The position numbers and the translations under genes were made by a program. The notes beneath the pieces were generated by a model, which searched no databases, had not been told where the DNA came from, and saw only the letters and a list, made by a program, of their open reading frames with translations. Of a stretch of DNA of 64,000 nucleotides, positions 13,607-51,278 are shown in pieces. This DNA comes from an uncultured Chloroflexia bacterium. Its GTDB lineage: Bacteria; Chloroflexota; Limnocylindria; Limnocylindrales; CSP1-4. The stretch spans positions 229,911 to 293,910 of the forward strand of contig CAWFND010000008.1 in assembly GCA_963817095.1 (NCBI GenBank), in the 5' to 3' direction. Each line of letters begins with the position of its first letter. The first letter of the stretch is position 1.

Positions 13607-13623
13607 AGGGAGGTGACGACGAG

Positions 13624-13818: not shown

Positions 13819-13853
13819 GCGGCCGAGCCGGCGTCGCCACCCGGAGAAATCCA

Positions 13854-20202: not shown

Positions 20203-20236
20203 GGACGCGGGTGCGGGACGATCGCCGGGCGGAGCC

Positions 20237-22606: not shown

Positions 22607-22607
22607 C

Positions 22608-23130
22608 TCACGCCTCCGCCGCGACCGCTTCGCCAGCCCCGGCCGGCGCCGCGGCACTCGCGCTGAGCTCGCCGGCGGCCTGCTGGATCGCCTTCACGAT
22701 GTTCACGTAGCCGGTGCAGCGACAGAGGTTGCCGCTGATCCCCTGCCGGATCTCGGCTTCCGATGGGCTCGGGTTCTCGTCGAGCAGCCAGGCGGCCTGC
22801 ATGATCATGCCCGGGGGTGCAGAACCCGCACTGGAGACCGTGCTGGTCCCAGAACGCCTGCTGGAGCGGGTGGAGGGTGGCCCCGTCGACCATGCCCTCG
22901 ATCGTCTTGATCTCGGCCCCGTCGGCCTGGACCGCGAGCATCGTGCAGGACTTCGCGCTCCGGCCATTCACGTGGACCGTGCACGCGCCGCAGTTGCTCG
23001 TGTCGCAGCCGATGTGCGTTCCGGTCAGCCCGAAGACGTCTCGGAGCAGGTGGACGAGCAGGAGCCGTGGCTCGACGTCGGCCTCGTGGGCCTCGCCGTT
23101 GACCGTGACGGTGATGTGCTGTGTCGTCAT
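22608..23130 (-). CDS. coxS: CoxS (2Fe-2S) small subunit, interrupted by a 1-nt insertion at about 22810-22817
   Basis: N-terminal [13 protein letters not shown]...LQCGFCTPG in one frame and MIMQAAWLL...[16 protein letters not shown] in the +1 frame. The junction lies in a CCCGGGGG run. Confidence 0.8.
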
Positions 23131-23140
23131 CGTCGTTCCC

Positions 23141-24014
23141 TCACGCGTTCGCCAGCGCCCGCTCGACCGCCTTGCGGAGCGATCGAAGGGTGAGCTCGGC
23201 GACCATCGCCCGCTTGTAGTCGGCGGGGCCCCGGACGTCGGCGGTGGGTTCGCTCGTCGCGGCCGCCGCCAGGCCGGCGGCCCGGAACGCCTCGTCGGAC
23301 GGTTGCTTGCCCGCGAGGCCGGCTTCCGCGTCGGTCGCGGCGAACGGCGAGCCGGAGACGCCGGTCACGCCGATCCCGGCCCAGCGGATCGCGCCGTCAT
23401 CGCCGATGCCGACGACCGAGGCGACTCCGGCTGTCGCGAAGTCGCCGACGCGCCGCTCGAGCTTCACGTAGGCGCCGCCCTGGCCGCGGGGTCGGCGGCC
23501 GAACCGGATCTCCGTGAGGATCTCCGTCGGCTCGATCGCGGTCGTGAACGTGTCGAGGAAGAAGTGGCGCGCCTCGATCACGCGCTCGCCATTCCGTCCC
23601 CGGCAGACGATCCTGGCGTTCACCGCGAGGAGCGCCGCGGGCCAGTCCGAGGCGGGATCCGCGTGGGCGACGGAGCCGCCGATCGTGCCCCAGTTGCGGA
23701 CCTGCGGGTCGCCGATGCCGCCCGACACGTCGTGCAGAAGCGGATAGCGCGCGATCGTGGCGTCCTCGTGGATCTGGCGGTGGGTGGCCCGCGCGCCGAC
23801 CCTGAGCTCATCATCGGTCTCGACGATCGCGTCGAGGCCGGCGACGTCCTGGATGTCGACGAGGAGGCCGGGCTGCGCGAGGCGCAGCTTCAGCAGGGGC
23901 AGCAGGCTGTAGCCGCCCGACAGGATCTTGGCCTCACCCTCGTGATCGGCAAGGAGCCTGAGGGCGCCGTCCAGATCCGGCGGACGAGCGTAATCGAAGG
24001 GTGCCGGGAATCAT
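23141..24014 (-). CDS. coxM: CoxM (FAD-binding) medium subunit, frameshifted at codon 5-6 (extra G in the GGG run at 23999-24001)
   Basis: ATG-ATT-CCC-GGC-ACC (MIPGT) followed one base later by the [40 protein letters not shown] frame. That frame is open and continuous to 23141 (...[12 protein letters not shown]...). Confidence 0.75.
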
Positions 24015-24700: not shown

Positions 24701-25223
24701 GCGCTCGTCTTCAACGCTCGAGGGCCGGGCCCGCTGGTGCGGGACCCGGCCTTCGTCTGTCCGTCCCAGCTTCGCGGAACGCGGGGCATACCACCGGTCG
24801 GTCGTCATCGCACCCCGGCGACATCCGGAACGTCGTGCGGTTCCGATCGTCGGTCGTCGGGCACCACGAGGGTCCTGACGAGCGCTCCGTTCGACCGTTG
24901 GAACAGCGGACGAGCCAGGAGACGGATCAGCCGGCCGTCGCGGCCTCCGGCTCGGGAGCCGCGCCCATCGCCGCCCCCGTCTCGACCCAGGTCTTCAGGC
25001 CGGACACGATGTAGACGAGGCCCGACGGGAACTCGCCGTGGACGACGCCGCCGTCCCGCATGCCCGACACGACGACGGTCAGCTTCGTGCTCGGAGCGGC
25101 TCCCGGATGGGTTGACTGCGCCACCGGTGTTGGAGACCGCCGCTCCGTGGACAACGGACGCGCCGACGCACACCCTTGGCGCATGTTCCCTGGCATCCTC
25201 GACCGTCCTCGTCGGGTCAGGAC

Positions 25224-26072
25224 ATGGCTCGCGACGCGAGCGCTGGCGTGAGCCTGACCACGGACGACCGCATCGCGGACGAGCAGGTCCGGCACTGGCT
25301 CGGCGAGAAAGCGGTGCGATCGCCCCTCGTCGCGATGAACTCGTCCGCCTGGCTGGTCTCGTCAGGCGCCGAGCGCTACGTGCTCAAGATCGCCGACGTT
25401 TCGGACGAGCCCGGCCTGCGCGTCGCAGCGTGGCTGGAGGAGCACGGACTGCGGACCGGCGCACCGGTGCACATGACCGTTCGCGGCGATCGACTGGTGG
25501 CGCTGCTGCCGTTCGTGGACGGACGAGGACTTGACTCTTCCGGCGCGGACATCGACCTGCTCGGCGAGACGCTGGGGCGCGCCCATTCGCTCCTCGCGGG
25601 AGCGCCGGTACCCGATGGCCTCGACCGCTGGCCCTGGGCCTGGCTCGATGCGACGGCCATCGACGAACCGGCGCTCCGAGGGGCCGCTCGCGGCGCGATC
25701 GATCGGGCCGAGCGACTGGCGCCGGCCCTGACCCACGGGATCCTCCACGCGGATCCGGCTCCCGAGGCCTTTCTGGCCAGCGAGGAGGGCGTAGCCCTGA
25801 TCGATTGGGGCTCCGCCTACCATGGACCGCTCCTCTACGACGCGGCATCGGCGTGGATGTACACGGACGAGCGCGTTCTTGCGGCATACGCCCGAACGGC
25901 CCCGATCGGATCGGACGAGATCGCCGGCGCGGCAACGTTCCTCGCCTTCCGGTGGGCGGTCCAGGCCTGCTACTTCTCAAATCGGATCCGCCGCCGCGAC
26001 TTGACCGGTCTCGACGGAGACTCCGGCAACGACAAGGGTCTCGCGGATGCGCGACGGGCGCTCCTCGGCTAG
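25224..26072 (+). CDS. phosphotransferase-enzyme-family (APH/choline-kinase-like) protein
   Basis: Brenner motif GILHADPAPEAF and the downstream LIDWGSAYHGPLLYD block. Confidence 0.7.
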   Translation: MARDASAGVSLTTDDRIADEQVRHWLGEKAVRSPLVAMNSSAWLVSSGAERYVLKIADVSDEPGLRVAAWLEEHGLRTGAPVHMTVRGDRLVALLPFVDGRGLDSSGADIDLLGETLGRAHSLLAGAPVPDGLDRWPWAWLDATAIDEPALRGAARGAIDRAERLAPALTHGILHADPAPEAFLASEEGVALIDWGSAYHGPLLYDAASAWMYTDERVLAAYARTAPIGSDEIAGAATFLAFRWAVQACYFSNRIRRRDLTGLDGDSGNDKGLADARRALLG

Positions 26073-26224
26073 AGCCGCACCGGTGTTGGTCTCCGCGGCG
26101 CTTGTCATCGGTTGACCGCCGCGCGGCCGTCGACCACGATCGGCCGATGGGAAACGACGACGCGATCCGGGCGCTTGACGCCGGTCGGCGCCGGGAGGCC
26201 GTGCGCGGCGTTCGCGGCGTGCCG

Positions 26225-27722
26225 ATGATCGAGCATGCCGTGGTGATCGCCGGAGGCGGTCCGACGGGGCTGATGCTGGCGGGTGAGCTGGCCCTGGCCG
26301 GCGTCGACGTCGCCATCGTCGAGCGGCGCCCCAATCAGGACCTCCCGGGCTCGCGCGCAGGCGGTCTGCAGTCACGAACCATCGAGGTCCTCGATCAGCG
26401 CGGCATCGCCGATCGGTTCCTCGCGGAGGGGCAGGTGGCCCAGGTCGCCGGGTTCGCCATGATCCGCCTGGACATCAGCGACTTTCCCACCCGGCATCCC
26501 TACGGGCTTGGGCTGTGGCAGAAACACATCGAGCGCATCCTCGCCGGCTGGGTCGCCGAACTGAACGTCCCGATCCACTACGGCACCGAGGTGACCGGAT
26601 TCGCGCAGGACGACGCCGGCGTGGACGTCGTCCTGTCCGACGGCCCACGCGTGCGGGCGCAGTATCTCGTCGGGTGCGACGGAGGACGCAGCCTGGTCCG
26701 CAAGGAAGCCGGGATCGAGTTCCCCGGCTGGGACGCGACGACGAGCGCCCTGCTCGCCGAGGTCGAGATGACCGAGGAGCCGGAACTGGGCGTTCGCCGC
26801 ACGCCCTCGGGCACGCATGCCCTGGGCAAGGTCGAGTACGAGGTCAAGGACGGCAAGGTCGTCTACCAGCCTGGGGGGACGGTCGGGGTCATGCTGACCG
26901 AGCCGCAGGTCGGCACCAGCGAGCCCACCCTTGGCGATCTTCGCGAGGGCCTCGTCGCCGTGTACGGGACCGACTACGGGATCCACGATCTCACGTGGAT
27001 CACCAGGTTCACCGACACGACCCGGCAGGCTGCTGCCTACCGCAAGGGACGGGTGCTGCTGGCCGGCGACGCCGCGCACGTGCATTCCCCGGTCGGTGGA
27101 CAGGGCCTCAATATCGGCGTGCAGGATGCGGTCAACCTGGGCTGGAAGCTGGCGCAGGTGGTCAAGGGGATGTCGCCAGACAGCTTGCTCGATACCTACC
27201 ACGGCGAACGGCATCCGGTCGGTGCCCGCGTGCTCCGTACCACGATGGCGCAGGTGGCGCTCACGCGCGTCGACGATCGCACCGAGGCATTGCGCGACAG
27301 CGTGTCCGAGCTGCTGAGCATGGACGAGCCTCGCCGACGATTCGCCGCGATGATGTCCGGCCTGGACATTCACTACGATCTCGGCGAGGGCCATCCGCTG
27401 CTGGGACGCCGCATGCCCGATCTCGACCTGTTGACCGCCAACGGTCCGCTGCGGGTCTTCACCCTGCTGCACGATGCCCGGCCGGTGCTGCTCTACGTCG
27501 GTGAGCCCGCCGGGTTCGACATCACGCCGTGGGCGGATCGGGTCCGGCTGGTCGAGGCCAGCTACGACGGTCCGTGGGAGCTTCCGGCGACTCGGGACGG
27601 TCGCCGCTCCCTCCGCCGTGCTGATCCGGCCCGACGGATATGTGGCGTGGGTGGGAGACGAGGCGAACGTGGGCCTCGCCGACGCGCTGACCACCTGGTT
27701 CGGACCGCCGACTTCGGCGTAG
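26225..27722 (+). CDS. FAD-dependent aromatic-ring monooxygenase, with a 1-nt indel near 27585-27600
   Basis: GGGPTGLMLAGELALAGV, GCDGGRSLVR and LAGDAAHVHSPVGGQGLNIGVQDAVNLGWKL. C-terminus ...VAAPSAVLIRPDGYVAWVGDE lies in the +1 frame. Confidence 0.75.
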
Positions 27723-27853
27723 CGCACCGGTCGATGACCGGACGGGCGCCTTTCGTTGTCGGCGAGCAAGGGGTTGCCTCAGTGCGACCATGCCTGCAAC
27801 GCATCGGAGACGGTTGGGTTGCGGCCGCCCGATCCGCGGCGCACGCTGAATCG

Positions 27854-28363
27854 ATGCGGTGGGTTCGGGATGTCGCGTGGAAGCTGGCCGTGGGCGGGAT
27901 GGCCGCCGCGGGCCTCGGCGTCGTCGTCCTGGTCGTCCAGGCAGCTCGCGAGGTCATGACCGATCCGAGCCTCAGCCTGATCGACGGCTACTGGGTCGGC
28001 CGCCTGCCGTGGACGGCGATCGGGGTCGACCTCGTCGTCGCCGGCAGCACCGCCGCGGCAATCGCCGGACTCGTCGGATCGTGGCTGAACGGCGGCTGGA
28101 TCGCGCGCGTGCTCGCGACCGTCGCGGCGCTCGTCGCCGCGTTCTGGTGGGCGATCGCGCTGATGCCCCAGCCGGGCGGCGCGCCATGCACAGAGTGCGG
28201 GCCGCACGTCGCCGACCCGATCACCTACGCCTACAGCCTGCCCGAGACCGCCGTGCTGCTGCTGGTCGTGCCGGCGCTCGTCGTCACGGCGATCGCGGCC
28301 CTCGCGCGGCCGCGCACCGAGGCCTCGAATCAGACCACGGTCGCGCCGCCGGCCTCGACCTGA
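27854..28363 (+). CDS. hypothetical membrane protein (about 169 aa)
   Basis: Continuation of the long ORF after the monooxygenase. Three or four hydrophobic helices. No family recognised. Its 3' end overlaps the convergent DsbA gene. Confidence 0.4.
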   Translation: MRWVRDVAWKLAVGGMAAAGLGVVVLVVQAAREVMTDPSLSLIDGYWVGRLPWTAIGVDLVVAGSTAAAIAGLVGSWLNGGWIARVLATVAALVAAFWWAIALMPQPGGAPCTECGPHVADPITYAYSLPETAVLLLVVPALVVTAIAALARPRTEASNQTTVAPPAST

Positions 28364-30924: not shown

Positions 30925-31277
30925 GACCACACCTCATCGGGGACTCCGATCGCACCGAGGCCATCCCAGTCGCGGTCTGCTAGGGCATGGCACTTGTAAC
31001 GCCGGTTCCTTTGGTCTGTCGAGATAGTTATCCACATTCGCGACGACGTTCTCCGCCGTCAAATTCAGCCGGGCCGCAATGCAATGCGATCTCTTCCGTT
31101 CATGGCGTTGCATCAGATACCGCAGTTGACGACCTTCACCGTCGTCAGCAACGAGTTCCTCGGCGGCGGCAAGGAGAAGTCGGAATACGTGGTGCAAGCG
31201 AAGGGTCTTCAATGCCTCAAGAAACCATCGGCCCCTTCGGTCGATCCGAAGGGGCCGATGTCTAGGCCGTCAGACGG

Positions 31278-32156
31278 CTATTTCGAATGGTGCGATTGCG
31301 ATCCGTGATGTTGGCCCGATCGGTTCTTGGTCTTGTCCTTTGCGCCCGATTGCACACTCGCATGCCGGACCGTGGCCTGATGGTGTGCCTTGGTCGAGTG
31401 CTTGACCGGCGATGTCGCTCCGTCGCTCCCGGTCGTGGGGTTGACGTTCGCGGTGACGACTGGCGGTAGCGCGCCCGGGTTCTTGCCTCCGGTCGCGAAG
31501 TAACTGACGCAGTCGCCCTGGTTCTTGAAGTGGTTGCCGGCGTTGTCGATCATCGCCTGCCAGCCGCCATCCTTGCAGTCGGATTTCGTGGGGACGGTTT
31601 CGGTGATGACGACATTGTCGATGGCTGGGCCGAACGGGCCCACTGTCGTGCTGACGAAGCTGAGCTTCGTGCTCGCGCTTGTCGCCAGGAACGTGTAGGT
31701 CTCCGGCGTCCAGTTCATGTTGGTGAGATCGTTCCCGGTCACGTCATAGGTGTAACTGGCTGTGGCTCCGCCCGTCGCGCTGGCGTCGAGCGTCTTGACC
31801 GTCGGAGGCCCGTCCGGGTTTCCTGAGAGAAAGAACGAGACGGTGTAGGTGTTGCCGATCGTCGTCGCGAGCGTCTGGCTGATCGTCCCGGCGTCGGCGC
31901 CGCTCATGTCGATGCTCATCGAGCCGTCCTGAGCCGTCCAGTGGGTGCCAACCCAGTCGACGCTTCCTGCGTCCACGGTCCAGCCGGTGATGCTGGTGTC
32001 GCCGGTGTTCAACTGTTCGAAGCCGGATCCACCGTCGACGTACGTGCCAGTCTCGAAACTCCCGTTGGTCGGCCCGGTGAAGGCCAGAGTGGCTCCTGCG
32101 AGCGCGATGGCAGCCAGGCCTCCGAAGGCAATGCCTAGGCCGGATCGTCTTGTCAC
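31278..32156 (-). CDS. secreted DUF642 / choice-of-anchor-C domain protein with basic His-rich C-terminal tail
   Basis: GTG start with GGAGGA at -6. Signal peptide RRSGLGIAFGGLAAIALAGATLA. GSFETG...WTV...SIDMSG...NTYTVSFFLSGNP blocks. Confidence 0.65.
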   Translation of the reverse strand: MTRRSGLGIAFGGLAAIALAGATLAFTGPTNGSFETGTYVDGGSGFEQLNTGDTSITGWTVDAGSVDWVGTHWTAQDGSMSIDMSGADAGTISQTLATTIGNTYTVSFFLSGNPDGPPTVKTLDASATGGATASYTYDVTGNDLTNMNWTPETYTFLATSASTKLSFVSTTVGPFGPAIDNVVITETVPTKSDCKDGGWQAMIDNAGNHFKNQGDCVSYFATGGKNPGALPPVVTANVNPTTGSDGATSPVKHSTKAHHQATVRHASVQSGAKDKTKNRSGQHHGSQSHHSK

Positions 32157-32470
32157 GGGGCATCCTCCTGCCGACAGCAGTGGCGGGACGAGCCTGGTCG
32201 TCTTAGGCCGTCCTCGGTGCCGCAACCGCGATATCGCGGCATTCGCCCGGCGTGACTACCGTAGACGCGAAAGAGGCCACGTAAAGCGGGCAAATGGTCC
32301 CGGGCGAGGTGGACATGAGTTCAGCCTCTTCGGACAGAGTTGCCCCGAAACCGCGGGCGATCGCCGCCCCGTGTGACCTCAGGGCGACTTGCAGGCCTCC
32401 CCTTGCAGGCCTCCCACAGCCAGCGTCCATGACCTTCGTCGGTCCGATCGGGCGCGCGAAGGCCGTGCAG

Positions 32471-32491
32471 CAATGCAAGGGAAAGGTCTAG
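32471..32491 (+). repeat. copy 1 of recurring motif CAATGCAAGGGAAAGGTCTAG
   Basis: Identical 21-mer to copy 2. About 140 nt upstream of the cyclase gene. Confidence 0.5.
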
Positions 32492-32633
32492 CGCCGGAAT
32501 GATCGATCGTTGATCTCGGACTTGAACCCGAAGAGCGACGCCTTCGGCCGCGTAACGAGGGCCTAGAGAGGACCAAGAGCGTACAGCGGTCGGCGATCAA
32601 GGCGCGAACTCGAGTCGCGTAACCTTCGGCGGC

Positions 32634-33856
32634 ATGAGCAGCGGTGCCATCACGGCGGGGCTAACTAGACTGGTATCGATCGCCGACCTTTCGGGGGACG
32701 ACGACGACACCCGACTGCGCAAGCGAATTGGCGTGGCAGCCGGACTGATCACGATCGTTGCGCCATGGACATTGCCGCTCCTGTCGCCCACGCCTCTCGG
32801 GATTGGCCTCGCGATCGGGCTATCGACCTACAGCGCGATCAACCTCACGGTCCTCGCGAGGACACGGCGCTTCGAGCGCTATGTGGTCGTCCTCATTGCA
32901 GCGGGACCCGTATTCGTTTTCGCGACAAACGCCCTGGCCGGCGGGGTAACGACCAGCGGCGCAGCATGGGTCTGGGCCTTCCTCACCCCGGCCTACGCGA
33001 TCCTTGCTCTCGGGCTACGGCGAGCTACGCCGTGGCATGTCTTCTTCCTGGCAGCCCTTCTGCTCACGGTGGCGCTTGATCCGGTTGTTCGGATCTGGCT
33101 CGCGCCCCCGCCGTATGCGATCCAACTCGTCTTCTACGCCCAGAACATCGCTGCCCCGCTAACGGTGACGTTCCTGCTCCTTCGCTTCAGTGATCTTCGG
33201 AGGCGGGCGGCGGAAGCCCGTTCCGACGAGCTATTGATGAACGCGATCCCCGCGTCAATCGCCACCGGCTCAAGCACGGCGAGAGCCATATTGCTGAGGC
33301 CTACCCCGAAACGACGGTCATGTTCGCCGACATCGCGGGGTTCACTCCGTGGGCGCATCGGACCGAGCCCGCCCGCGTCGTCGCCCTGCTCGACGATCTT
33401 TTCAGCCGCTGGGACGGCCTTGCCTTTGATCATGGGATCGAAAAGATCAAGACCGTCGGCGACGCGTTCATGGCCGTCGCCGGCGCCCCCGAACCCAGCG
33501 GCGACCACGCCCTGCGGGCCCTCGCCTTCGCCCGATCGATCCTAGTGGCGACTGCCGACTGGCGAGCGGCGAACGACATCGACCTCGAGATACGCGTGGG
33601 CCTCGCGAGTGGTCCGGTCGTGGGCGGGGTCATCGGGCGGCGTCGGCTGCTCTTTGATCTTTGGGGCGGCACTGTCAACACAGCGGCCCGCATGGAGTCG
33701 ACAGGAATCCCCGGCCGGATTCATCTCGCCGCTTCCACACGCGCCCTGCTTGGCAACGTTGGCGTCGAGCCGCGCGAGATCGACGTCAAGGGTCTCGGCC
33801 CGATGACGACCTACCTTGTCGCGAACGAGGGCCTCGAGCGGTCCGTGAGCGGATGA
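32634..33856 (+). CDS. membrane-anchored class III adenylate/guanylate cyclase (6 TM helices plus CHD), with a 1-nt deletion near 33262-33270
   Basis: TM domain, then LLMNAIPASIA | (frame -1) LKHGESHIAEAYPETTVMFADIAGFTPWA...KIKTVGDAFMAV...GTVNTAARMES. Confidence 0.7.
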
Positions 33857-33881
33857 ATTGGGGACGCCGGAGGCCGAGTGC

Positions 33882-33902
33882 CAATGCAAGGGAAAGGTCT
33901 AG
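33882..33902 (+). repeat. copy 2 of motif CAATGCAAGGGAAAGGTCTAG
   Basis: Identical to copy 1. Its terminal CTA is the stop codon of the minus-strand gene 33899.. Confidence 0.5.
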
Positions 33903-34592
33903 CCCCCTGTCGAGCTAGTCGCCCAAGATGGGATTGCCGGGCTTAGCCCCGACCACAGCGGGGTCGCCGGGGGCTCTGCCGGCACCACCTCGGGCGACGC
34001 GATGATGACGGTGCGGAGCGACTGCTCGGTCCGAAGGCTCTCCCGGGTGCTGTCGACGCTGCGATCCAGCAATGCAGTGAGGAGTGCCACGTTGTAGGGG
34101 ACGCGCCTGCCTGCCCGACGATCAATTGCGTCCATCGCAGCGGCGAGCCACTCGAAGTTCTCATAGACGGCTGGGTCCTCGAACCGTGCCCGCATCGCGA
34201 TGCAATAGAGGCCGAGGTATCCCCACCAGGCCTGGCAGGAGTTGCCGTGGTTGTCCCAGAGCAACCTCCGGTCGAGGTGCCCGGCCCGGGTCAGTGTCCC
34301 GAGCCCCTCCCAGTAGTTGGCGAGCGTCCCGGCTGCTGCGCCAGGGACATCCGCCGGGTCCACCCCGCCCTGGAGAGCGACGAGGACGTTCAACCTATAC
34401 GACAGGAGCCGCTCAGAGTTCCACTCGCGGAGGAACGCGTTGATCTGCTCGATGGCCCCTGGCTCCGCTGGAGCCGTAGCTGGCGGTAGATGGCGATGAA
34501 CGTGACGGCGAGGACGACCCCGCTGAGCGCCGTCCAGAACCACTCCGAGCCCGGCCCGTGAACGCCATCCCGTCGGTGTTGATGAACTTCAC
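33899..34592 (-). CDS. hypothetical protein with N-terminal TM helix (two homopolymer frameshifts)
   Basis: Stitched reading VKFINTDGMAFTG|PGSEWFWTALSGVVLAVTFIAIYRQLRLQRSQG|AIEQINAFLREWNSERLLSYRLNVLVALQGG... Junctions lie in a GGGCCGGGC run (~34550) and a GGGG run (~34458). Confidence 0.4.
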
Positions 34593-34689
34593 GTCCGCTC
34601 CCTATGCCCTGCTACCCCCGTGGGCGGACGATACGCGGGAGGCGAGAGTCCGTTCCTGGTTTCGCGCGGGATGGAAGGCTGTGATCGGT

Positions 34690-34706
34690 ACAAGGGAAAG
34701 GTTTAG
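34690..34706 (+). repeat. copy 3 (degenerate) of the motif: ACAAGGGAAAGGTTTAG
   Basis: About 290 nt upstream of the LLM oxidoreductase gene. Confidence 0.4.
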
Positions 34707-34995
34707 CACAACGCCGCGCACGAAGAGCCCCGGCCTCTACTTCAGGGCGGTCCGTCCAAGCTCGACGCGCTCCCTCGTCGACGCACGAACGCCTGGAGAG
34801 CGAAGAACGCGCGAGGCCCGTACCCGAGCATCAACGGAGACGTCCGGAGCGCGCAGGGACATCGTCGTCCTCGGACGTGGACGAGTCACCTCTCGGGTCT
34901 CATGCGTGCCCGGACGGTCTTCGTCGCGACCAGCGCTTCGCGACACTACTGTTGGCTCGACCGTTGCCGCCTAGTCCGCGAACCGGAGAACGCAG

Positions 34996-35946
34996 ATGGC
35001 ATTGCCCGAGATCGGCGTCGCCCTCAACTCGTTTCGTTCGGCCAACGACCCACGGACGCTCGGCTGGACGGAGCTCCGCCGCCTTGCCGTCCAGAGCGAG
35101 GCCCTCGGCTTCGACACGATCTGGATCCCCGACACGCTGATCGGTCGGTTCGAGCCTGGCGGGCCGGTCCACGGCTGGTGGGATGCGATCGCCCTCCTCG
35201 CCGCGGTCGCAACCTCGACCTCCCGGATCAAGCTCGGCTCGTGGGTACTGGCAAGCCTCTACCGCGATCCCGGGATAACGGCGAAGCAGGCGGCCACCAT
35301 CGATGAGATCAGCGCCGGCAGGTTCGTCCTTGGCATCGGGGCGGGCGCCGCCGGGACTGCGTCGCGGGCATTCGGCTTCCCCGATGACCACGTGTACGAG
35401 CGGTTCGAGGAATCGCTCGAGGTTCTCGTCCCGCTCCTTCGAACCGGCCGCGCCGACTTCGAGGGAACCTACCGGCGGGCTCGCGAGCTGCCGCAGCTTC
35501 CGACTGGGCCGCGGCCGGGCGCGATCCCGCTCCTGCTGGCAGCCCACGGGCCCAAGGGGTACCGCCACGCGGCGCGAGTCGCCGACATCTGGAGCTGCTA
35601 CCAGCTCGAGCGCGGCGACGCGGCTGAGCTCGGACCGCGCGTCCGTGCGCTCGAGACGGCCTGCGGCGAGGTCGGGCGCGACCCGGCGAGTATCGGTCGG
35701 TCGGCCGGCATCGTCGTCGCCCCGCTGGCGCCCGAAGGCGCGACCGTGACGACGCCGTACGGGACCGCTCTGTCGGGCCCGGCGGAGCAAATCGCCGAGT
35801 CGATCCGCTCGCTGGTCGAGGTCGGATTCACCCAGGTCGAGCTCTGGCCGGAACCGATGACGGTCGAGGCCCTCGACGCCATGGCTCCGCTCCTGACTCT
35901 GCTCGACGCGAGCCATCGCCCGGAAGGCGTGTCTCCGAAATCCTGA
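34996..35946 (+). CDS. LLM-class (luciferase-like) flavin/F420-dependent oxidoreductase
   Basis: MALPEIGVALNSF...GFDTIWIPD...GRFVLGIGAG... SD GGAGA. Confidence 0.85.
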   Translation: MALPEIGVALNSFRSANDPRTLGWTELRRLAVQSEALGFDTIWIPDTLIGRFEPGGPVHGWWDAIALLAAVATSTSRIKLGSWVLASLYRDPGITAKQAATIDEISAGRFVLGIGAGAAGTASRAFGFPDDHVYERFEESLEVLVPLLRTGRADFEGTYRRARELPQLPTGPRPGAIPLLLAAHGPKGYRHAARVADIWSCYQLERGDAAELGPRVRALETACGEVGRDPASIGRSAGIVVAPLAPEGATVTTPYGTALSGPAEQIAESIRSLVEVGFTQVELWPEPMTVEALDAMAPLLTLLDASHRPEGVSPKS

Positions 35947-36167
35947 GCGACCCGGCCCTCGGCACTTGGCACGCGAGCAGGGCACGAGATCTAGTGTCGA
36001 GTCAGTCTCAGACGAGCCGGCGCGGATTCCGGCGCGTGTTCGCCAGTTCTGCGGGACTCGAGATGAGCTTCACACCCGTGCCCTCCATCCTGCTGCCCGA
36101 CGTGCGGACGATATCCGCGGGATGCGACGGCGTTCGTCCTCGTGGGACACCTGCGAACACTGAGTAG

Positions 36168-36189
36168 CAGTGCAAGGGAAGGGTTTATC
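36168..36189 (+). repeat. copy 4 (degenerate) of the motif: GCAGTGCAAGGGAAGGGTTTATC
   Basis: About 160 nt upstream of the ECF sigma gene. Confidence 0.4.
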
Positions 36190-36345
36190 TGCTGCGCGGC
36201 AGAAAGGGACCTCGACTCCAGTTCATCTCCAGTCGTTCCGTCTTCGGCACTGGGATCTCGACTTTTCGAAGATGGAACATCTCCCCAGCAACCCGACTCA
36301 TGATGGGTAAGCGCGGCCACCGAACCGCCACGAGCCGGATGTCCG

Positions 36346-36903
36346 ATGCAGCGAGACCTCGTCCTTCGTGCCACGAGCGGGGAACACGACGCCTTCACTG
36401 AGCTCGCCGCGGGTGCCTTCGACCACCTGCACCGGACCGCGCGGCTGATCCTGCGCAGTGACGATCTCGCGGCCGATGCCGTCCAGGAGGCCCTCATGGC
36501 GGCCTGGCTGCACATCCGCGCCGTGCGCGATCCCGACCGCTTCGATGCCTGGCTCCATCGGCTCCTCGTCCACGCCTGCTACCGCGAGGCGCGCAAGATC
36601 CGTCAGCGCGCGGTGGTCGAGATCCATGTCAGCGCGCCTGAGGCGCGCGGCGATGGCGATGCCCAGGACCGGACCGCCCTCCACGACCAGCTCGAGCGAG
36701 GCTTCCGACGCCTGACCGCCGAGCAACGGGCCGTCCTGGTCGTCCACTACTACCTCGGGCTGCGTGATGCCGAGGCGGCGATCGTCCTCGACATCGCGGT
36801 CGGCACCTTCAAGTCCCGGCTGCACCGCGCTTCATCCGCATTGCGCGCGGCAATCGACGCCGACGAGCGGACGCCGACCGTCGGCGAGGAGTCCATCGCA
36901 TGA
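36346..36903 (+). CDS. ECF (sigma-70 family) RNA polymerase sigma factor
   Basis: Region 2 FDAWLHRLLVHACYRE and region 4 HTH VLVVHYYLGLRDAEAAIVLDIAVGTFKSRLHRA. Confidence 0.85.
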   Translation: MQRDLVLRATSGEHDAFTELAAGAFDHLHRTARLILRSDDLAADAVQEALMAAWLHIRAVRDPDRFDAWLHRLLVHACYREARKIRQRAVVEIHVSAPEARGDGDAQDRTALHDQLERGFRRLTAEQRAVLVVHYYLGLRDAEAAIVLDIAVGTFKSRLHRASSALRAAIDADERTPTVGEESIA

Positions 36904-38225
36904 TCGGCCACGACGACTTCGATCGAACGCTCGCCGGCTGGTTCGAGGCCGAGCGCGGCATCGCCGGCGCCCACCGCCGGTCTCGAGCGGGTCGTCGACG
37001 CGACCCGCCGCCGGCGGCCCCGGCCGGGGTGGCTCGCCGGGCCCGGCAGCCACTGGGTCGGGGAGGCACCATCAGATGCCGGCTCGAGCACCGGGAGCCG
37101 GTCCCTCCCGCGCCTGGATGCGCGCTGGTGGACCGCCCTGATCCTGCTGTTGCTCGTCGCCGCCATCGTCGGCGGGGCGCTCCTCGTCGGTGCCCGGCTG
37201 GTCCATCCCTCGCCGCTTCCGCGCCTCGGCCATCTTGCCTATGGCCTCGACGGCGATATCTACCTTGCCGACTGGGATGGAGGGAACCCGATCAGGATCG
37301 CCGACGGCGTACCCGCCAACAGCCGGGACTCGTGCGGCAACTTCGGTGGAGAGCCAACATTCGGGGCAGAGGGAACAATGTGGTCGCCCGACGGACGGCA
37401 TCTCGCCTATCGATCCTGCGGGACGGTCTTCATCAGTGACCCAACAGGCCACGCCGTCGTTTCAATGCCCGGCAATGGATGGCTGGTCTCGTGGGCGCCG
37501 GACTCCGCTCGCGTTGCTACGTGGGTAGGCGGCGGGGCGAAGACGATCGGCATCTACGGGCTCGACGGAATCCTTCAGGCATCGCTCACGTTGCCGTCCG
37601 GACTTGCGCCAACAGGCGACTACGACCCGATCTGGTCGCCCGATGGCAGATCGGTCCTGATCCGGCTGGGGCCGCCTTCCCCGTCGGTGGTCTGGGAAGT
37701 CCCAGTCGACGGAGCGCCGCCACAGCCCGTCCCGGTAGACGACCCGCGATCGCACCTGGCCACGTACTCGCCCGACGGACATCACGTCGCCTACAGCACC
37801 GCCGACTCCACCACCGAGTCGCTCATCGTTGCCGCGGCCGACGGTTCCCAGGTTCGGGTGATGAGCAGCGAAGTCATCCCCGGCTGGGTTGATTCTCCGC
37901 GCTGGTCCCCGACGGGTGACCAGATCGCCTTCATCTGGAGGAGCGACATCTGGCAGGATCAGGCGGGCAATCCGATGCCGGGCACTCCGAGCTCCGCCTC
38001 GTCGACATGTCGAACGGAGCAGTGGCGTCACTGGCCACTGCCCCCGCGCCCGACTCGCTTGGCGTCATCGGGTTCTCACCTGATGGTGACCGGATCCTGT
38101 TCTCAAGGTTGGACGGCAACAACGCGACGTCCCTCTGGAGCGTTCAGACGGACGGCTCCGAGGATCGGCCCCTCGTCTCCGGCACCGACTGGGGCGAGTG
38201 GCAGCCACTGCCGGCCGGTCCGTGA
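36900..38225 (+). CDS. anti-sigma factor with single TM helix and periplasmic TolB-like beta-propeller domain (two frame changes, ~36955 and ~37988)
   Basis: MIGHDDFDRTLAGWFEAE | APTAGLERVVDATRRRRPRPGWLA...RWWTALILLLLVAAIVGG (TM) ...SPDGRHLAY/SPDGRSVLI/SPDGHHVAY/SPTGDQIAF blades | ...MSNGAVASLAT...GFSPDGDRILFS...WQPLPAGP*. ATGA overlap with the sigma gene. Confidence 0.6.
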
Positions 38226-38417
38226 TCGGATCCACTCCGCTCGTCTTCCTGGGCGCGTAGACGGCTCGCATGCCGGTCTGGCCGAATCGTGCCAGAGACA
38301 GGCCGTCTGAGGTGAAGGATCGCGGAGGCCTACTTCAGCGAATACCGAGCGCGGGCTGCGATGACGTTGGTCCGATCGCGCCAGGGATGCGCGAAGGCCG
38401 CGTACCAGTTCTCGGCC

Positions 38418-38810
38418 TTATCTGACGGGCTCAGTCGTCTTCGGCGGCTTGAGATGGCGTCTGATCTGGGCCTCGAGCTGCGGCTTTGGCAGCGCGCCGA
38501 CGAGGCGATCCACGACCGAGCCGTCGCGGAGCACGACCATGGTCGGGATGCTCGATGCGTCGAAGCGACGGGCGAGGCCCTGGTTCTCGTCGACGTTGAC
38601 CTTGACGACCTTCAGGCGCCCTGCGTACTGATGGGCAAGCTCGTCGAGGATCGGCGACACGAACCGGCACGGCCCGCACCATGGTGCCCAGAGATCGATC
38701 ACGACGGTCGGCTGGGCCCGCGTCTCGGCTTCGAACGTCGACTCGTCGGCGTCCACCACCCACGCCAGCGCGCTTGCCGCAGTTCCCGCAATGCGGCGAA
38801 CCCCGATCAC
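38418..38810 (-). CDS. thioredoxin
   Basis: WAPWCGPCR active site and IPTMVVLRDG. Start possibly internal to the listed ORF. Confidence 0.8.
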   Translation of the reverse strand: MIGVRRIAGTAASALAWVVDADESTFEAETRAQPTVVIDLWAPWCGPCRFVSPILDELAHQYAGRLKVVKVNVDENQGLARRFDASSIPTMVVLRDGSVVDRLVGALPKPQLEAQIRRHLKPPKTTEPVR

Positions 38811-39751: not shown

Positions 39752-40360
39752 TCACGATACGTCGGACGGCGGCTTCCCGGCGCCGACCAGGCGGTCGAGG
39801 TCGGCGGGCGTGTCGACATCCGGGTTGGAGCCGTCCACGGGCACGACCCGGACCAGCTCGGGATGGGCGGTGAGGACGGGGCCGAAACCCCGGTCCCCGG
39901 CGAGCTCGTCGGCGAGACGCCAGATCGCGCGTCGAGCGACGATCGGGTTCGGGGCGGCGTCGTCGGCGTAGCGTGGGACGACGAAGGGCGTCACCGGATC
40001 GGCGGCGAGCGCCGCGACGAGCCGGCGGATCACCTCGGCCCGAACGAGCGGCTGGTCGCCGGGCAGGATCACGGCCGCCTCGACGGCCTCGTCGAGCTCC
40101 AGCGCGCGGAGCCCCAGCCGTACCGAGCCCGAGAGGCCTTCGGCCGGCTTCGGGTTGATGACGCGAAGCACGGCGCCCAGCTCGAGATCGTCCAGCTCGC
40201 CCGCCGGCGGCACGACGACGACGATCGGATCGAGCGACGCCGCGCGGGCGGCGTCGACGACGTGAGCGACGATCGGGCGGCCGTGGAGCAAGGCTCGGAG
40301 CTTGCCCCCGCCGAACCGGGAGCCGCTTCCGGCCGCCAGGACGACGGCCGCGATCGTCAT
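39752..40360 (-). CDS. MobA/MocA-like molybdenum-cofactor nucleotidyltransferase family protein
   Basis: MTIAAVVLAAGSGSRFGGGKLRALLHGRPIV... ILPGDQPLV. Confidence 0.75.
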   Translation of the reverse strand: MTIAAVVLAAGSGSRFGGGKLRALLHGRPIVAHVVDAARAASLDPIVVVVPPAGELDDLELGAVLRVINPKPAEGLSGSVRLGLRALELDEAVEAAVILPGDQPLVRAEVIRRLVAALAADPVTPFVVPRYADDAAPNPIVARRAIWRLADELAGDRGFGPVLTAHPELVRVVPVDGSNPDVDTPADLDRLVGAGKPPSDVS

Positions 40361-41469
40361 CCGACGGCGGCCGTCTCCGCGGCCCGGGCGCGTTCGACAA
40401 GCGGCGTCCCGCTGCCGCCGTATCGCTCGGCGACGACCTCGGCGATGATCGCGAGGGCCGTCTCGGACGGGTTGCGCCCGCCCAGATCCAGGCCGACGGG
40501 GCCGCGCAGCCGCGCCAGCTCCTCGTCCGTCACGCCAGCCTCGCGCAGCCGTTCGCGACGATCGCCCTGCGTCTTCTTCGAGCCGACGGCGCCCACGTAC
40601 CGGCAGCCGCGGCGGAGCGCCTCGACGATCGCGGGCTCGTCGAACTTCACGTCGTGGGTCAGGACCGCGACGGCATCGTCCGGCCCCAGGCCGATCTCGT
40701 CGGCGACCTCATCCGGCCAGCCAACAACGAGCCGGTCGACCCGGTTGGACGGGAAGCGCTCCGGCGTCGCGAACGACGCCCGGCCGTCAACGACGACCAC
40801 TTCGTAGCCGAGCTCCTTGGCGAAGACCGCGAGCGAGCGGGCGACCTCGACCGCGCCCACGATCACGAGGCGCGGCCGGACCGGGAACGCCTCGACGAAG
40901 ACCTGGCGGTCGCCGATCGTGACGGTCCGGGACGTCCCGCGCAGGAGCGCGTCCGCGGCGGCCGAGCGCAAGGCGGCATCGTCGTCGGGCGAGCCCAGCG
41001 AGCCGTCCAGGGAGCCGTCGGTCGAGATGACGATCGGCTGGACCGGGACGCTCCCCTCCCCCGGCTCGAAGCGGCCGAACGCGGACGGCGGTGCGTCGGC
41101 GGGCAGCACGGTGGCGACGGCTCGCCCCCGCTCGCGGGCGCCCGCGATCGCGACACCCGGCACCGCCGGCTCGATCAGCACGTCGATCGTCCCGCCGCAT
41201 GCCAGCCCGACGTCCCACGCTTCCTCGTCGCTGATCCCGTAGCGGATCACGCGGCTGTGGCCGTCGGCACGGGCCCGCTCGATCTCGCCGGCCGCGGCCC
41301 CCTCGACGCAACCGCCGCTCACGGAGCCCGCGATCCGCCCGTCGTCGGCGCGGATCAGGACCGCACCCTCCGGCCGCGGCGCGCTCCCGAACGTCCGGAC
41401 GACGACCGCGCGCCCGCTCGCAACGCCCTCGGCGGTCCAGCCATCCAGGGTTTCCAGCAGCTCCTTCAT
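40357..41469 (-). CDS. XdhC/CoxF-family accessory protein
   Basis: XdhC_CoxI N-domain (RAVVVRTFGSAPRPEGAVLIRADDGRIAGSVSGGCVE) and the C-terminal Rossmann-like domain. ATGA overlap with the MocA-like gene. Confidence 0.8.
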   Translation of the reverse strand: MKELLETLDGWTAEGVASGRAVVVRTFGSAPRPEGAVLIRADDGRIAGSVSGGCVEGAAAGEIERARADGHSRVIRYGISDEEAWDVGLACGGTIDVLIEPAVPGVAIAGARERGRAVATVLPADAPPSAFGRFEPGEGSVPVQPIVISTDGSLDGSLGSPDDDAALRSAAADALLRGTSRTVTIGDRQVFVEAFPVRPRLVIVGAVEVARSLAVFAKELGYEVVVVDGRASFATPERFPSNRVDRLVVGWPDEVADEIGLGPDDAVAVLTHDVKFDEPAIVEALRRGCRYVGAVGSKKTQGDRRERLREAGVTDEELARLRGPVGLDLGGRNPSETALAIIAEVVAERYGGSGTPLVERARAAETAAVG

Positions 41470-41527
41470 CGGGTCGATCCTCTCGGGGTCACGGGGCGGG
41501 TGATGGTGTGAGTGGTCACGGCGCGGG

Positions 41528-42940
41528 TCATGTCGCTCGCGTCAGGGGTTGGGCCGTCGCCGGGTCGCCACCCAGCTCGAGCGGCGCGGGCGGCGCCACG
41601 CTCCGGATCGCCTGGCTCGATGCGCGGTCGCCGGCGTCGGCGGATGCGGCCGCCTCGCCACCGCGCCGGACGTCGCTCGACCGCACGCCCGCCAGGATCT
41701 CGCCGAGCCGCTCGAGGCTGGCCACCGTGCCGGCGGGGACGAAATCGTCGATGTACGGCAAGGCGGCCCGCATCCCGCCCGCGAGCGGCTCGTAGCCGGG
41801 CGTCCCGGCCAGCGGGTTGAGCCAGACGAGGCGGTGGCAGTTCCGGCGGAGCCGGGCGGTCTCGGTCGCGACGAGAGCCGGATCGCCGCGATCCCAGCCG
41901 TCCGACACGACGATGACGACGCCGCTCGTCCGAAGCGTCCGGCGCGCCCAGTGCAGGTTGAAGTCCCGGAACGATTCCCCGATCCGCGTCCCGCCCGCCC
42001 AGTCGTTGACGCTGTCGGCGACCTTCGCGAGGGCTCGGTCGCGATCCCGGTCGCGAAGGAGCCGTGTCACGCGGGTGAGCCGCGTCCCGAAGACGAACAA
42101 TTCGGTCTTCACCGACGACGCCGCCGACAGCGCCTGGACGAACCGGAGGAGCAGCCGCGAGTGACGCTCCATCGAGCCGGAGATGTCGCACAGGACGACG
42201 ATCTGGCGGGGCCGTTTCGTCGGGCGCCGCCAGACCCACTCGGTGAACTGGCCGCCGGTCGAGATGTTCCGCCGCATCATCGTCCGCGGCGAGAGCAGCC
42301 GGCCGTGGTGGTGGAGCTCGTAGCGGCGGGTCCGGCGCAGCTCCAGCCGCGGCTCGAGCAGGTCGACGAGCCGCTCCGCGTCGCGCAGCTCCGCCGCCGT
42401 CATCCGGTCGAAGTCGCGATGGCGGAGCAGCTCGCTCGACGAGTAGGCCGTCGGCGCCGCGATCACCCCGTCGATCTCGCTGTCGTCGTCCTCGTCGGAC
42501 GAGATCGGCATCGGGATCCCGTCGATCCGGTTGGGGTCCTCGCCGATCGTGCCCTCGTCACCGGCCGGCGAGGCGACGCCGTCCTCGGCCTGGGCCGCGT
42601 CGGGATCGTCGGCGGCCACGCCCGGGCCGTCGGTGTTCGGGCGCTTCCGGCCACGCCGCCGCCACCAGCGGGCGAAGACCTTGTCGTAGACCTCGCGGTC
42701 GTCGCGGCGCCGGACGAAGACCGCCTGGCCGGCGGCCCGGACCGTGTCGCGATGGCCGATGTCGATGAGGCCGAGGGCACGGGCGAAGTCGACGGACGCC
42801 CCGAGGTCGGTCGCGAGCCCGGCGGCCCGCAGCGCCCGGCCGAAGCCGACCGACTCCGCGAGCAGGCGGCGACCGTCGACCTCCGGGCCCCACGGCGCGC
42901 GGACGATCGCCGGGTCGTTCGGGATCCCGCGGCGTCGTCA
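41528..42940 (-). CDS. coxE: CoxE-like vWA-domain protein, apparent frameshift ~30 codons in (~42860)
   Basis: vWA MIDAS IVVLCDISGSMERHSRLL. The N-terminal block GRRLLAESVGFGRALRAAGLATDLGASVDFARALGLIDIGHRD continues the same frame upstream of the listed ORF. The only ATG (42940) is in the adjacent frame. Confidence 0.7.
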
Positions 42941-42967
42941 TCGCCGGCTGCTCGGTCGGGCCGCCGA

Positions 42968-43908
42968 TCAGGCGGTCGCGCCGGCCTCCGCGAGGTAGGC
43001 CCGGGCGGTGTCGCCGCGGACCCGCCGGATGTCCTCCTCGTACTTGAGGACGACGCCGAGCGTCTCGTCGACGACCTCGCCGGTCAGCTCGCGCGAGCCG
43101 AGCGACAGGAGCGCCGCCGCCCAGTCGAGCGTCTCGGCGATCCCCGGCACCTTCGTCAGGTCGGCCTCGCGCAGGCGATGGACGAAGCCGACGACCTCGC
43201 GAGCGAGCCGCTCCGGCGCCTCGGGAACTCGCGCGAGCACGATCTCGAACTCCTTCTGGGCCGTCGGGTAGTCGATCCAGTGGTAGAGGCAGCGGCGCTT
43301 CAGCGCGTCGTGGACCTCGCGGGTCCGGTTCGAGGTGAGGATCACCCGCGGCGGGCGGGCCGCCTTGATCGTGCCGATCTCCGGGACCGTGACCTGGAAG
43401 TCCGACAGGATCTCGAGGAGGTACGCCTCGAACTCCTCGTCGGCCCGGTCGATCTCGTCGATCAGGAGGACCGGGCGGCTCGCCGTCCTCGTCGGCCTCG
43501 AGGGCCTGGAGGAGCGGCCGCCGGATCAGGAACTCCGGGCCGAAGATGTCGTGGGCGTTGGCCCGGTCGGCCTGGCCGCGGGCTTCGAGCAGCCGGATCT
43601 CGAGCATCTGGCGCGGGTAGTTCCACTCGTACACCGCGGCGTTGACGTCGAGGCCCTCGTAGCACTGGAGCCGGATCAGGCGGCTGCCGAGACTGGCGGC
43701 GAGGACCTTCGCGAGCTCGGTCTTGCCGACGCCCGGCCTCGCCTTCGAGGAGGAGCGGCCGGCCGAGCCGGAGCCCGAGGAACACGGCCGTCGCGAGCGA
43801 GCGATCGCAGACGTAATCGCGGGCGCGGAAGCTCGCCACGATCCCGTCGACCGAGTCGAGGGCGTCGCGTCCGGCCGTGCCGGAGGAGGGTTCGGTGACC
43901 TGGGACAT
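42968..43908 (-). CDS. coxD: CoxD / MoxR-like AAA+ ATPase, broken into three frames (~43730 and ~43487)
   Basis: MSQVTEPSSGTAGRDALDSVDGIVASFRARDYV...LLLEGEAG | RPGVGKTELAKVLAASLGSRLIRLQCYEGLD...ALEADEDGEP | PVLLIDEIDRADEEFEAYLLEILSDFQVTVPEIG...ILTSNRTREVHDALKRRCLYHWIDYP. The second junction is GG versus G. Confidence 0.7.
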
Positions 43909-43918
43909 GGCGGCGATC

Positions 43919-46329: not shown

Positions 46330-46390
46330 CGGCCGGTCGAGGATACGGGGAACGCCTCAAGCGCACCCGGCCGGCGGCCGTCCGGCCGTT

Positions 46391-47441: not shown

Positions 47442-47475
47442 CCGTGGATCGCCGGCAGGTGCAGAGGCCTGCCGG

Positions 47476-50750: not shown

Positions 50751-50774
50751 CGGGGTGCTCCCTCGGCTCTCGGC

Positions 50775-51278
<504 letters not shown>

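Follow-up and report, generated by a model that had tools for sequence, protein, structure and literature searches.

What kind of process leaves one short sequence again and again between unrelated genes, always facing the same way? The question is raised by a 64,000-nt stretch of the genome of an uncultured Chloroflexia bacterium (GenBank assembly GCA_963817095.1, contig CAWFND010000008.1, positions 229,911 to 293,910), here called the window, where a motif recurs among genes for a membrane cyclase, a luciferase-like monooxygenase and an extracytoplasmic function (ECF) sigma factor. An earlier inspection, here the sequence-only reading, had described a motif of about 20 nt at four sites and proposed that it could be an operator or promoter element of a shared regulon, perhaps that of the local ECF sigma factor, or else a miniature repeat. 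We suggest a different origin. In our judgement the motif is probably an attachment-site scar of the attL type, left by site-specific insertions that were stacked in tandem at ssb, the gene for single-stranded DNA-binding protein (SSB).

The repetition in the window is real. The core CAAGGGAARGGTYTA lies at 32476, 33887, 34691 and 36173, each time on the plus strand, and no motif copy was found on the minus strand of the 64-kb window. Matches to a 19-mer pattern with up to three mismatches occurred in none of 100 dinucleotide-preserving shuffles of the window, and the 15-mer core has six matches in the window (four of them the exact copies) against a shuffle mean of 0.72. Chance is excluded as the source of the repeated motif, and the observation of four copies on one strand is borne out, with 0 chance matches expected. 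The first two copies, claimed to be identical 21-mers, in fact agree across 22 nt (CAATGCAAGGGAAAGGTCTAGC). The length given for the motif holds as a conserved piece but not as its full extent, the repeat unit being about 38-39 nt long (CGAAGGCCGTGCAGCAATGCAAGGGAAAGGTCTAGCGCC; copies c1 to c4 in the table below). Likewise, the four sites stand, and two further degenerate members that had not been listed, c0 and the half copy c5, join them. Copies 3 and 4 have an additional ~82 nt upstream in common (z=14.6 against random window segments). Apart from copy 2, which, as had been noted, overlaps the stop codon of the minus-strand open reading frame (ORF) 33899-34543, all copies are intergenic. Rather than being scattered at random over both orientations and within coding regions of the window, the copies keep to a single strand and cluster within one 7-kb stretch, and the AT-richer composition that had been remarked on is confirmed there, with a G+C fraction of 0.65-0.68 in the array region against 0.70-0.75 in the flanks. 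The array extends over about 31.1-38.4 kb and comprises five units, from a decayed N-terminal fragment of ssb, directly followed by c0, to c5, a half site that lacks the tail. Between any two neighboring copies lies one gene or module, on either strand.

The motif is composite. The ~15 nt on its left side, GAAGGCCGAGTACCA, correspond to codons 42-46 of ssb (GAG AAG GCC GAG TAC CA; G-K-E-K-A-E-Y), and the ~22 nt on its right side, GTGCAAGGGAAAGGTTTAGCC, which we call the tail, are not ssb. The ssb-derived part mostly measures 13-18 nt (positions -13 to -18 through 0), a recurrent boundary; it extends to 55-62 nt in a small number of copies, and to 218-287 nt in those that carry an N-terminal ssb fragment (ssbN). 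Related contigs or loci, from metagenomes and metagenome-assembled genomes, bear L-numbers in what follows. The combination of ssbN and tail is present in L159, L164, L165, L166, L168 and L169; in L159 a 49-aa ORF with a Pfam SSB match ends in a diverged motif copy, and another copy there has partial ssb fragments before it. When the protein database was searched with ssbN joined to the peptide that the tail encodes, 273 truncated SSB proteins were returned, the best 120 of 273 being 46-90 aa long, and many truncated SSB proteins end in ..AE[YF]QCKGKV. A small ORF or peptide (..QCKGKV and stop) at the internal copies was also considered and was ruled out, since the copies are not all in one frame and in-frame stops are present; the reading holds only for truncated ssb ORFs.

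Beyond the window, a metagenome scan with TGCAAGGGAARGGTYTAGC gave 31 loci, about 24 of them high-GC soil or rhizosphere contigs with the common extended consensus cGAAGGCCGAGtAsCAaTGCAAGGGAAAGGTTTAGCC, and an nhmmer profile detected more copies. In 10 multi-copy contigs all 16 adjacent pairs of copies are on the same strand, and L159, L165 and L169 contribute 9 further same-strand adjacent pairs. These arrays are co-oriented, with gene-sized spacing (524-2288 nt between copies, holding one or two ORFs) and mixed gene orientation, the ORFs being found on either strand. The tail is 80-100% conserved over 37 distinct copies while the DNA past it is unrelated, and cargo varies freely between syntenic loci. 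The name of one element-gene homologue hints that the hosts of the arrays belong to the Chloroflexota (Candidatus Limnocylindrales). A scan of genome contigs with TRCAAGGGAARGGTYTA was set aside: that pattern is too degenerate, and the matches listed (L001-L119) are single chance matches in unrelated taxa.

The related arrays have a truncated ssb as their anchor and finish at an ssb that is either full-length or split. In these loci the junction comes after a truncated ssb of ~51 aa and is then repeated in a same-strand array, and the contigs are syntenic, with a pur operon, a GGDEF gene, the array, and genes for a Na/Ca exchanger and NAD synthase. L164 has ssbN (51 aa) with tail, a DUF4760 gene on the minus strand and full-length ssb. 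In L165 the motif occurs at 5574, 6611, 8152 and 10141, the copy at 10141 being the one with ssbN, and two genes and full-length ssb come next; in L169 ssbN is followed by more cargo genes, including an ECF sigma gene, and again by full-length ssb. The last insert of L164 and of L165 is flanked by a direct duplication of ~285 nt, consisting of ~150 nt of sequence upstream of ssb and the first 137 nt of the gene; it has a sharp end at GAGTACCA and a left boundary that differs between the two loci. It may be added that the truncated ~51-aa SSB retains the full ssb promoter region (L164 9850-10156/11023-11309; L165 9855-10168/12142-12424), 97-100% identical to the resident ssb 5' end. For these reasons the mini-SSB is probably expressed, and gene conversion between the 5' copies of ssb is likely.

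The opposite end of an insertion came from L170, which is L159 extended. Here the 3' half of ssb (KYHNIVTWDRLAQ through to the stop) is 91% identical to residues 44-109 of the L165 SSB, and in L170/L171 an inverted tail is fused to this half at the same codon, ..GATAAACCCTTCCC running directly into AAGTATCACAAC.. (or, more fully, ..CACTATGATAAACCCTTCCC into AAGTATCACAAC..). The same TAT wobble at Tyr46 is found on both ssb halves, which are therefore the parts of one ssb gene split by ~14 kb. Starting ~30 nt from this attR-type junction is a serine-recombinase gene of 394 aa (L170 8454-9638), whose product has a Resolvase catalytic domain at its N-terminus; the gene is followed in the L170 element by AAA_25, unknown genes, an Xer-like tyrosine integrase of 320 aa (L170 12685-13647; 4 kb inside the L159/L170 element), the motif array and ssbN. 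From these ends we reconstructed attL as ssb5'..AGTAYCA/GTGCAAGGGAArGGTTTAG and attR as ..TAAACCyTTCCC-A/AGTAYCA..ssb3', the stroke marking the junction. The attP predicted from them (TAAACCCTTCCCAAGTATCAGTGCAAGGGAAAGGTTTA) would have two 12-nt inverted arms and a 14-nt spacer with the AGTAYCA common to ssb, and this predicted layout is that of a classical site-specific recombination site. The copies in the window are of the attL type. Much of what characterizes tandem integrative islands is found at ssb: the direct repeats at unit boundaries derive from the target gene, a conserved element-derived arm abuts the target repeat, and related arrays are anchored on the target, one end being attL and the opposite end attR or a regenerated target; of these ends the window has only the decayed ssbN and c5.

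A sequence search of the PDB with the 394-aa recombinase gave no match to any solved structure, and neither the window nor the other loci contain homologues of the L159 mobile-element proteins. For p364 and p396, two unknown proteins, the precomputed Pfam results, the sole source used, list no domain. Another candidate, L172 (protein P0253), was rejected as an unrelated tyrosine-integrase element that is not at ssb. There is also a second insertion hotspot 18 nt further into ssb, directly after ..HNIVTW, where L163 (10001-10520) carries a different serine-recombinase element whose gene starts ~40 nt past the junction; many truncated SSB proteins from the database (among P0121-P0240) end at this point.

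The commonest cargo of the arrays is DUF4760, and its cassettes are modular, with gene, leader and motif in common and unrelated DNA downstream. The gene recurs with eight homologues; seven homologues adjoin motif copies, in six metagenome contigs. Read in the sense direction of the gene, the motif is followed by a variable stretch of ~30-45 nt, by a highly conserved leader that contains a TATCGT box and, as ribosome-binding site, GGAGG, and by the start, GTG AAG TTC ATC AAC ACC GAC GGG ATG. Homology between units spans gene, leader and motif and ends at the outer end of the motif (upstream scores of 58-157 and downstream scores of 6-11, save for the near-identical L136/L143 pair). Within the window, c3 is of the long form, and c4, c1 and c2, in that order, retain ever shorter remnants of the leader; the ~65 nt to the left of c1 are similar to it. 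The leader (CGCGTATCGTCCGCCCACCGGGGCAGCAGGACGGAGGG) and the first nine codons are unusually conserved at the nucleotide level (window 34593-34671 and 36062-36153; L127, L134, L136, L143, L149 and L159). The protein has an N-terminal transmembrane helix, and PADLOC returned no defence-system match for it.

In the mechanism that we favor, each copy of the motif would join the last ~15 nt of the target (GAAGGCCGAGTACCA in ssb codons 42-46) to the conserved ~22-nt end of an insert (GTGCAAGGGAAAGGTTTAGCC). Small inserts of ~0.5-2.3 kb, each with one or two unrelated genes on either strand, would have been added successively at one site in ssb and would now form a head-to-tail series in which every insert is delimited by that junction, always facing the same way. 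These junctions would be made, and could be reversed, by a recombinase acting in trans, for which the serine recombinase of L170 is the prime candidate and the Xer-like tyrosine integrase the alternative. We infer that the ~15-nt ssb half is kept as the B half-site of this recombinase; older units would be pushed away from the target, with their ssb-derived arms trimmed to the ~15-nt half site. With some inserts the ssb promoter and the first 46 codons may be brought along or acquired in a further copy, leaving a functional ssb (L164, L165 and L169), and others would split the gene (L170). An excised circle should then carry a junction in which ..GAAGGCCGAGTACCA is joined directly to GTGCAAGGG.. 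It is also conceivable, though we hold this more tentatively, that ssb serves as a previously undescribed, integron-like capture platform, at which bare single-gene cassettes with a linear site of ~38 nt are captured, stacked and perhaps reshuffled by a serine (or Xer-like tyrosine) recombinase supplied in trans from larger elements that share this site; on that proposal the array system would be widespread in uncultured high-GC soil bacteria.

Several observations weigh against tandem insertion at ssb. Large serine integrases normally do not recombine attL-type sites with attB. All internal sites are of the attL type (a B half plus P'), a difficulty for the growth of the arrays under large serine integrase rules. 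The inverted-tail attR with its adjacent recombinase is in one contig only, seen in two samples. No recombinase gene was found beside the arrays in L164, L165 and L169, and there is no recombinase, integrase or transposase among the Pfam-screened ORFs of the 64-kb window (43.3-48.3 kb unscreened), from which a full-length or 3' (C-terminal half) ssb is absent as well. A free attP was sought in viral contigs and none was found, scans of these contigs for the motif, the attR junction and the reconstructed attP giving chance matches only. Within one genome the copies of the ~285-nt ssb duplication show 97-100% identity, which fits duplication in situ or gene conversion as well as an ssb 5' end borne by the element. 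Finally, the homology between related arrays breaks off 63-72 nt to the left of the junction rather than at the junction itself. Two near-identical array pairs (98.5% identity), L137 1200/L149 532 and L125 186/L133, diverge there, which suggests that an arm of ~70 nt travels with the site or that cargo is replaced in some other way.

These last points would also fit if the array were instead a fossil of local duplication, the ssb 5' end and the junction having been repeatedly duplicated in place by unequal or illegitimate recombination, with genes gained in between, no dedicated recombinase, and the motif kept by descent. Besides the breakpoints, the within-genome identity of the ~285-nt duplication and its differing left boundaries in L164 and L165, the 57-nt tandem ssb fragments of L159 are in keeping with this idea. 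However, a 22-nt tail is conserved beside wholly unrelated cargo in dozens of contigs, the same left boundary near -15 recurs, cargo changes freely between syntenic loci, and the other half of ssb is joined to an inverted tail with a recombinase gene close by, so that we regard local duplication as unlikely. The same inverted tail invites a comparison with target-specific DDE transposons of the Tn7 type, where the tail would be a terminal repeat that begins with TG, AGTAYCA would be a target-site duplication of 7-8 bp, and insertion would have recurred at one site in ssb. The insertion in L170 is indeed bounded by inverted GGGAArGGTTTA ends that start with TG and is flanked by AGTACCA and AGTATCA, but neither a DDE transposase nor a Tns-like gene was seen in the element (precomputed Pfam), and the internal copies are left ends only, with an inverted-partner match of 8.02/14 upstream compared with 8.00 in the downstream control. 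We therefore think a Tn7-type origin improbable.

That missing upstream partner also tells against the motif being an attC site in an integron cassette array without integrase (a cluster of attC sites lacking integron-integrases, CALIN), where an R''/L'' partner would be looked for. Such arrays do share with ours the co-oriented sites, the single ORFs between them and a spacing of ~0.5-1.5 kb. However, RNAalifold found 0 consensus hairpin pairs in 22 copies, conservation does not extend to the GTT triplet, which is GTC in c1 and c2, and the site is conserved in sequence rather than in structure. No IntI is known from the arrays, the tyrosine recombinase of L159 scoring 38 bits against the 265-bit cut-off of the integron-integrase model TIGR02249, and an IntI with attI at the head of the array was sought in the window, where no integrase is among the Pfam-screened ORFs (43.3-48.3 kb unscreened). 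This explanation has very little to recommend it, and we place the operator or promoter of a local regulon, such as that of the adjacent ECF sigma factor, at the same low level. The copies are intergenic, three of them lie 140-290 nt upstream of plus-strand genes, and ECF sigma modules recur near arrays, but the neighboring genes are on either strand at variable distances, without fixed polarity, in the window and in ~15 related arrays, and one copy abuts two gene ends. There is no match to a sigma-70-like promoter, and GGAA and GTCTA are 2-3 nt apart instead of the 16-18 nt between ECF -35 and -10 elements; one third of the motif is ssb coding sequence, moreover, and it ends truncated ssb ORFs in many genomes. 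The regulon proposal of the sequence-only reading is accordingly unsupported. Its other proposal, a miniature repeat, comes closer, in so far as we take the motif for a repeat left by the insertion of DNA; the repeat would be an attachment-site junction, not a self-contained palindromic or dispersed mini-element. A structured non-coding RNA, a terminator or a repeat of the REP (repetitive extragenic palindrome) or MITE (miniature inverted-repeat transposable element) type seems to us least credible of all: copy 1 folds better than its shuffles (z=-2.5), but the other three copies have z from -0.1 to +0.8, an Rfam search gave no match, there is no consensus structure, and the copies are all on one strand in one 7-kb cluster of the 64-kb window.

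If the motif is a scar of tandem insertion at ssb, its closest described analogue, by comparison of architecture, is the family of ssrA islands of Dehalococcoides. These form tandem arrays with a 20-bp target repeat and a 15-bp element motif and have CcrB-like serine recombinases; about half of them are without integrase and are thought to be mobilized in cis or fixed, and their cargo is strain-specific (PMC3146451). Both systems place tandem units at a single-copy housekeeping gene, have a serine recombinase as candidate integrase and include units without an integrase. The short direct repeat of the target is 20 bp there and ~15 nt here, and the adjacent non-target motif is 15 bp there and ~22 nt here. 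Unlike the Dehalococcoides islands, which use the 3' end of the transfer-messenger RNA (tmRNA) gene, the insertions described here use the 5' third of the protein-coding ssb, and because of this an insertion splits the gene (L170) or comes with ~285 nt of duplicated sequence, made up of the ssb promoter and the first 46 codons (L164 and L165). The units here are also smaller, at 0.5-2.3 kb and mostly single genes, in contrast to several kb to tens of kb, and have no six-gene integration module. Staphylococcal cassette chromosome (SCC) elements, including SCCmec, use CcrAB serine recombinases, insert at rlmH and form tandem composites with direct repeats, some units being without ccr. They are similar to the ssb arrays in inserting site-specifically at one conserved gene and in forming tandem arrays separated by direct repeats. 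However, SCC elements insert at the 3' end of their gene, are much larger and occur in another host phylum, and the likeness is drawn at the level of description. This comparison is drawn in part from the discussion in PMC3146451.

Integron arrays and CALINs resemble the ssb arrays in having co-oriented sites, single ORFs with or without a promoter between them, units of ~0.5-1.5 kb and no nearby integrase, and differ in that no attC hairpin, IntI or attI is present at ssb, where the conserved site is linear and comes partly from the target gene. In the tycheposons and partial-tRNA repeats of Prochlorococcus, each new integration displaces earlier elements inward, and partial repeats of the target and degenerate remnants stay behind (bioRxiv 10.1101/2020.12.28.424599). 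Accretion at one attachment site with target-derived remnants is common to both, whereas tycheposons encode tyrosine recombinases along with replication modules and insert at tRNA or tmRNA genes, and the units here are mostly bare cargo. Compared with known islands, what is new is the target in the 5' third of ssb, the bare units of integron-cassette size, and the truncated mini-SSB ORF, which unlike in the related systems is a systematic by-product. Full-text literature searches found no prior description of ssb as an integration target or as a cassette platform.

Should tandem insertion at ssb be correct, a gene of replication and repair would be a landing pad for gene acquisition in abundant uncultured soil bacteria. 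It would also be a second, independent route to the cassette-style stockpiling of genes, with integron-sized units and a linear, target-derived site, and would offer a compact pair of recombinase and site. The 22-nt tail together with a truncated SSB of ~51 aa is an easy metagenome marker for flexible-genome islands, and the junction explains hundreds of puzzling "mini-SSB" gene calls. The cargo of the arrays includes regulators (ECF sigma modules and cyclases), redox enzymes and, in L166, defence genes. In that locus (NCBI assembly GCA_021789435.1), the island past the truncated ssb (11950-15978) has an ApeA-like HEPN gene and a restriction-modification gene of the MmeI family, so the hotspot collects defence genes too. 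Modules of an ECF sigma factor and a partner recur in or beside arrays (window 36346-38310, L164 6647-9645, L169 4128-5447); the partner is a PD40/Tricorn-like protein in the window and in L164 and an unannotated protein of 237 aa in L169.

Table. Features of the array in the window, in window coordinates.
Feature	Position	Strand	Basis
ssbN, decayed ssb N-terminal fragment (..LTTFTVVSNEFLGGGKEKSEY), left anchor of the array	31084..31188	+	tblastn with SSB N-termini from related loci
c0, degenerate junction copy: ssb half GAGAAGTCGGAATAC, then tail-like GTGGTGCAAGCGAAGGGTCTTCAATGCC	31174..31216	+	two-mismatch core match at 31195, alignment
Cargo gene 1, DUF642 protein	31278..32225	-	Pfam PF04862, E=2.3e-19
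c1, junction copy: ssb-derived half CGAAGGCCGTGCAGCAA and tail TGCAAGGGAAAGGTCTAGC	32457..32495	+	nhmmer E=4.9e-12
Cargo gene 2, membrane adenylate/guanylate cyclase, frameshifted	32634..33856	+	Pfam PF00211, E=9e-45, on ORF 33320-33856
c2, junction copy	33868..33906	+	nhmmer E=2.8e-12
Cargo gene 3, DUF4760-family membrane protein	33899..34592	-	Pfam PF15956, E=1.8e-10
DUF4760 5' leader and probable promoter (..TATCGTCCGCCCAC..GGAGGG..GTG), conserved	34593..34671	-	alignment of nine long-form copies
c3, junction copy	34672..34710	+	nhmmer E=8e-7
Cargo gene 4, luciferase-like monooxygenase	34996..35946	+	Pfam PF00296, E=4e-49
DUF4760 leader remnant and first four codons (GTG AAG CTC ATC), then cut	36062..36153	-	c3/c4 upstream homology z=14.6
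c4, junction copy	36154..36192	+	nhmmer E=5e-10
Cargo 5, ECF sigma factor (36346-36903) and downstream PD40/beta-propeller protein	36346..38310	+	Pfam
c5, half copy: DUF4760-leader remnant and ssb-derived half (GCGAAGGCCGCGTACCAGT), tail-less; right end of the array	38360..38409	+	nhmmer, alignment

At the left end of the array in the window, the ssbN fragment was detected by tblastn at 31126-31188 (E=5e-5 and 6e-6) and over 31084-31188 (E=0.004). Directly 3' of it, c0 matches the ssbN and tail junction of L164 at 55/77 nt, with a score of 30 against a null of 10.6±1.6. At the right end, c5 is a weak nhmmer match (38387-38409) to the left half of the model only, its ssb half running to ..GTACCAGT; it matches the left arm of an L136 copy at 47/59 nt (score 31 against a null of 9.2±1.6), and this alignment ends exactly at ..CAGT. 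Between them, c2 is located 12-26 nt past the stop of the cyclase gene, and its TAG (CTA on the minus strand) terminates the minus-strand ORF. The cyclase has a 1-nt frameshift near 33262, ORF 33320-33856 overlapping ORF 32634-33545 in a different frame, and DUF4760, whose GTG start codon is at 34590-34592, is frameshifted twice, both times in a homopolymer run of G/C. With these two frameshifted cargo genes, no recombinase, and no full-length or 3' ssb, the array in the window is probably an orphan and inactive. The PD40/beta-propeller protein may be the anti-sigma partner of the ECF sigma factor. For the luciferase-like monooxygenase of the window, a protein look-up led only to a Logan contig of 1.6 kb.

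Some smaller features were seen alongside. A terminator-like hairpin on the minus strand (31226-31260), with a strong 15-bp stem and a T-rich tail, lies between c0 and the stop codon of the DUF642 gene. Upstream of c1, a tandem 14-nt duplication at 32386-32413 (CTTGCAGGCCTCCC twice) is complementary to the tail of copy 1 and forms a long hairpin (fold z=-2.5); an equivalent hairpin partner was sought at the other copies and none was found, and the idea of a hairpin or attC that arose from this upstream sequence (CCCCTTGCAGG) does not extend to them. At c5 there is a perfect dyad, AAGGCCG-N12-CGGCCTT (38391-38420), which may be due to chance in GC-rich DNA or be a pseudo-attachment site. Further ORFs at 25176-28363 and 53926-56706 look fused or overlapping; these and the frameshifts are either indel errors of long reads or real pseudogenes. 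The window also has two clusters of the CO-dehydrogenase/xanthine-dehydrogenase type, at 19156-23728 and 40357-51278 (CoxG, XdhC, MoCoBD, CoxE and Fer2_2), and the lower-GC stretch of ~16 kb between them, the array included, may be a larger island.

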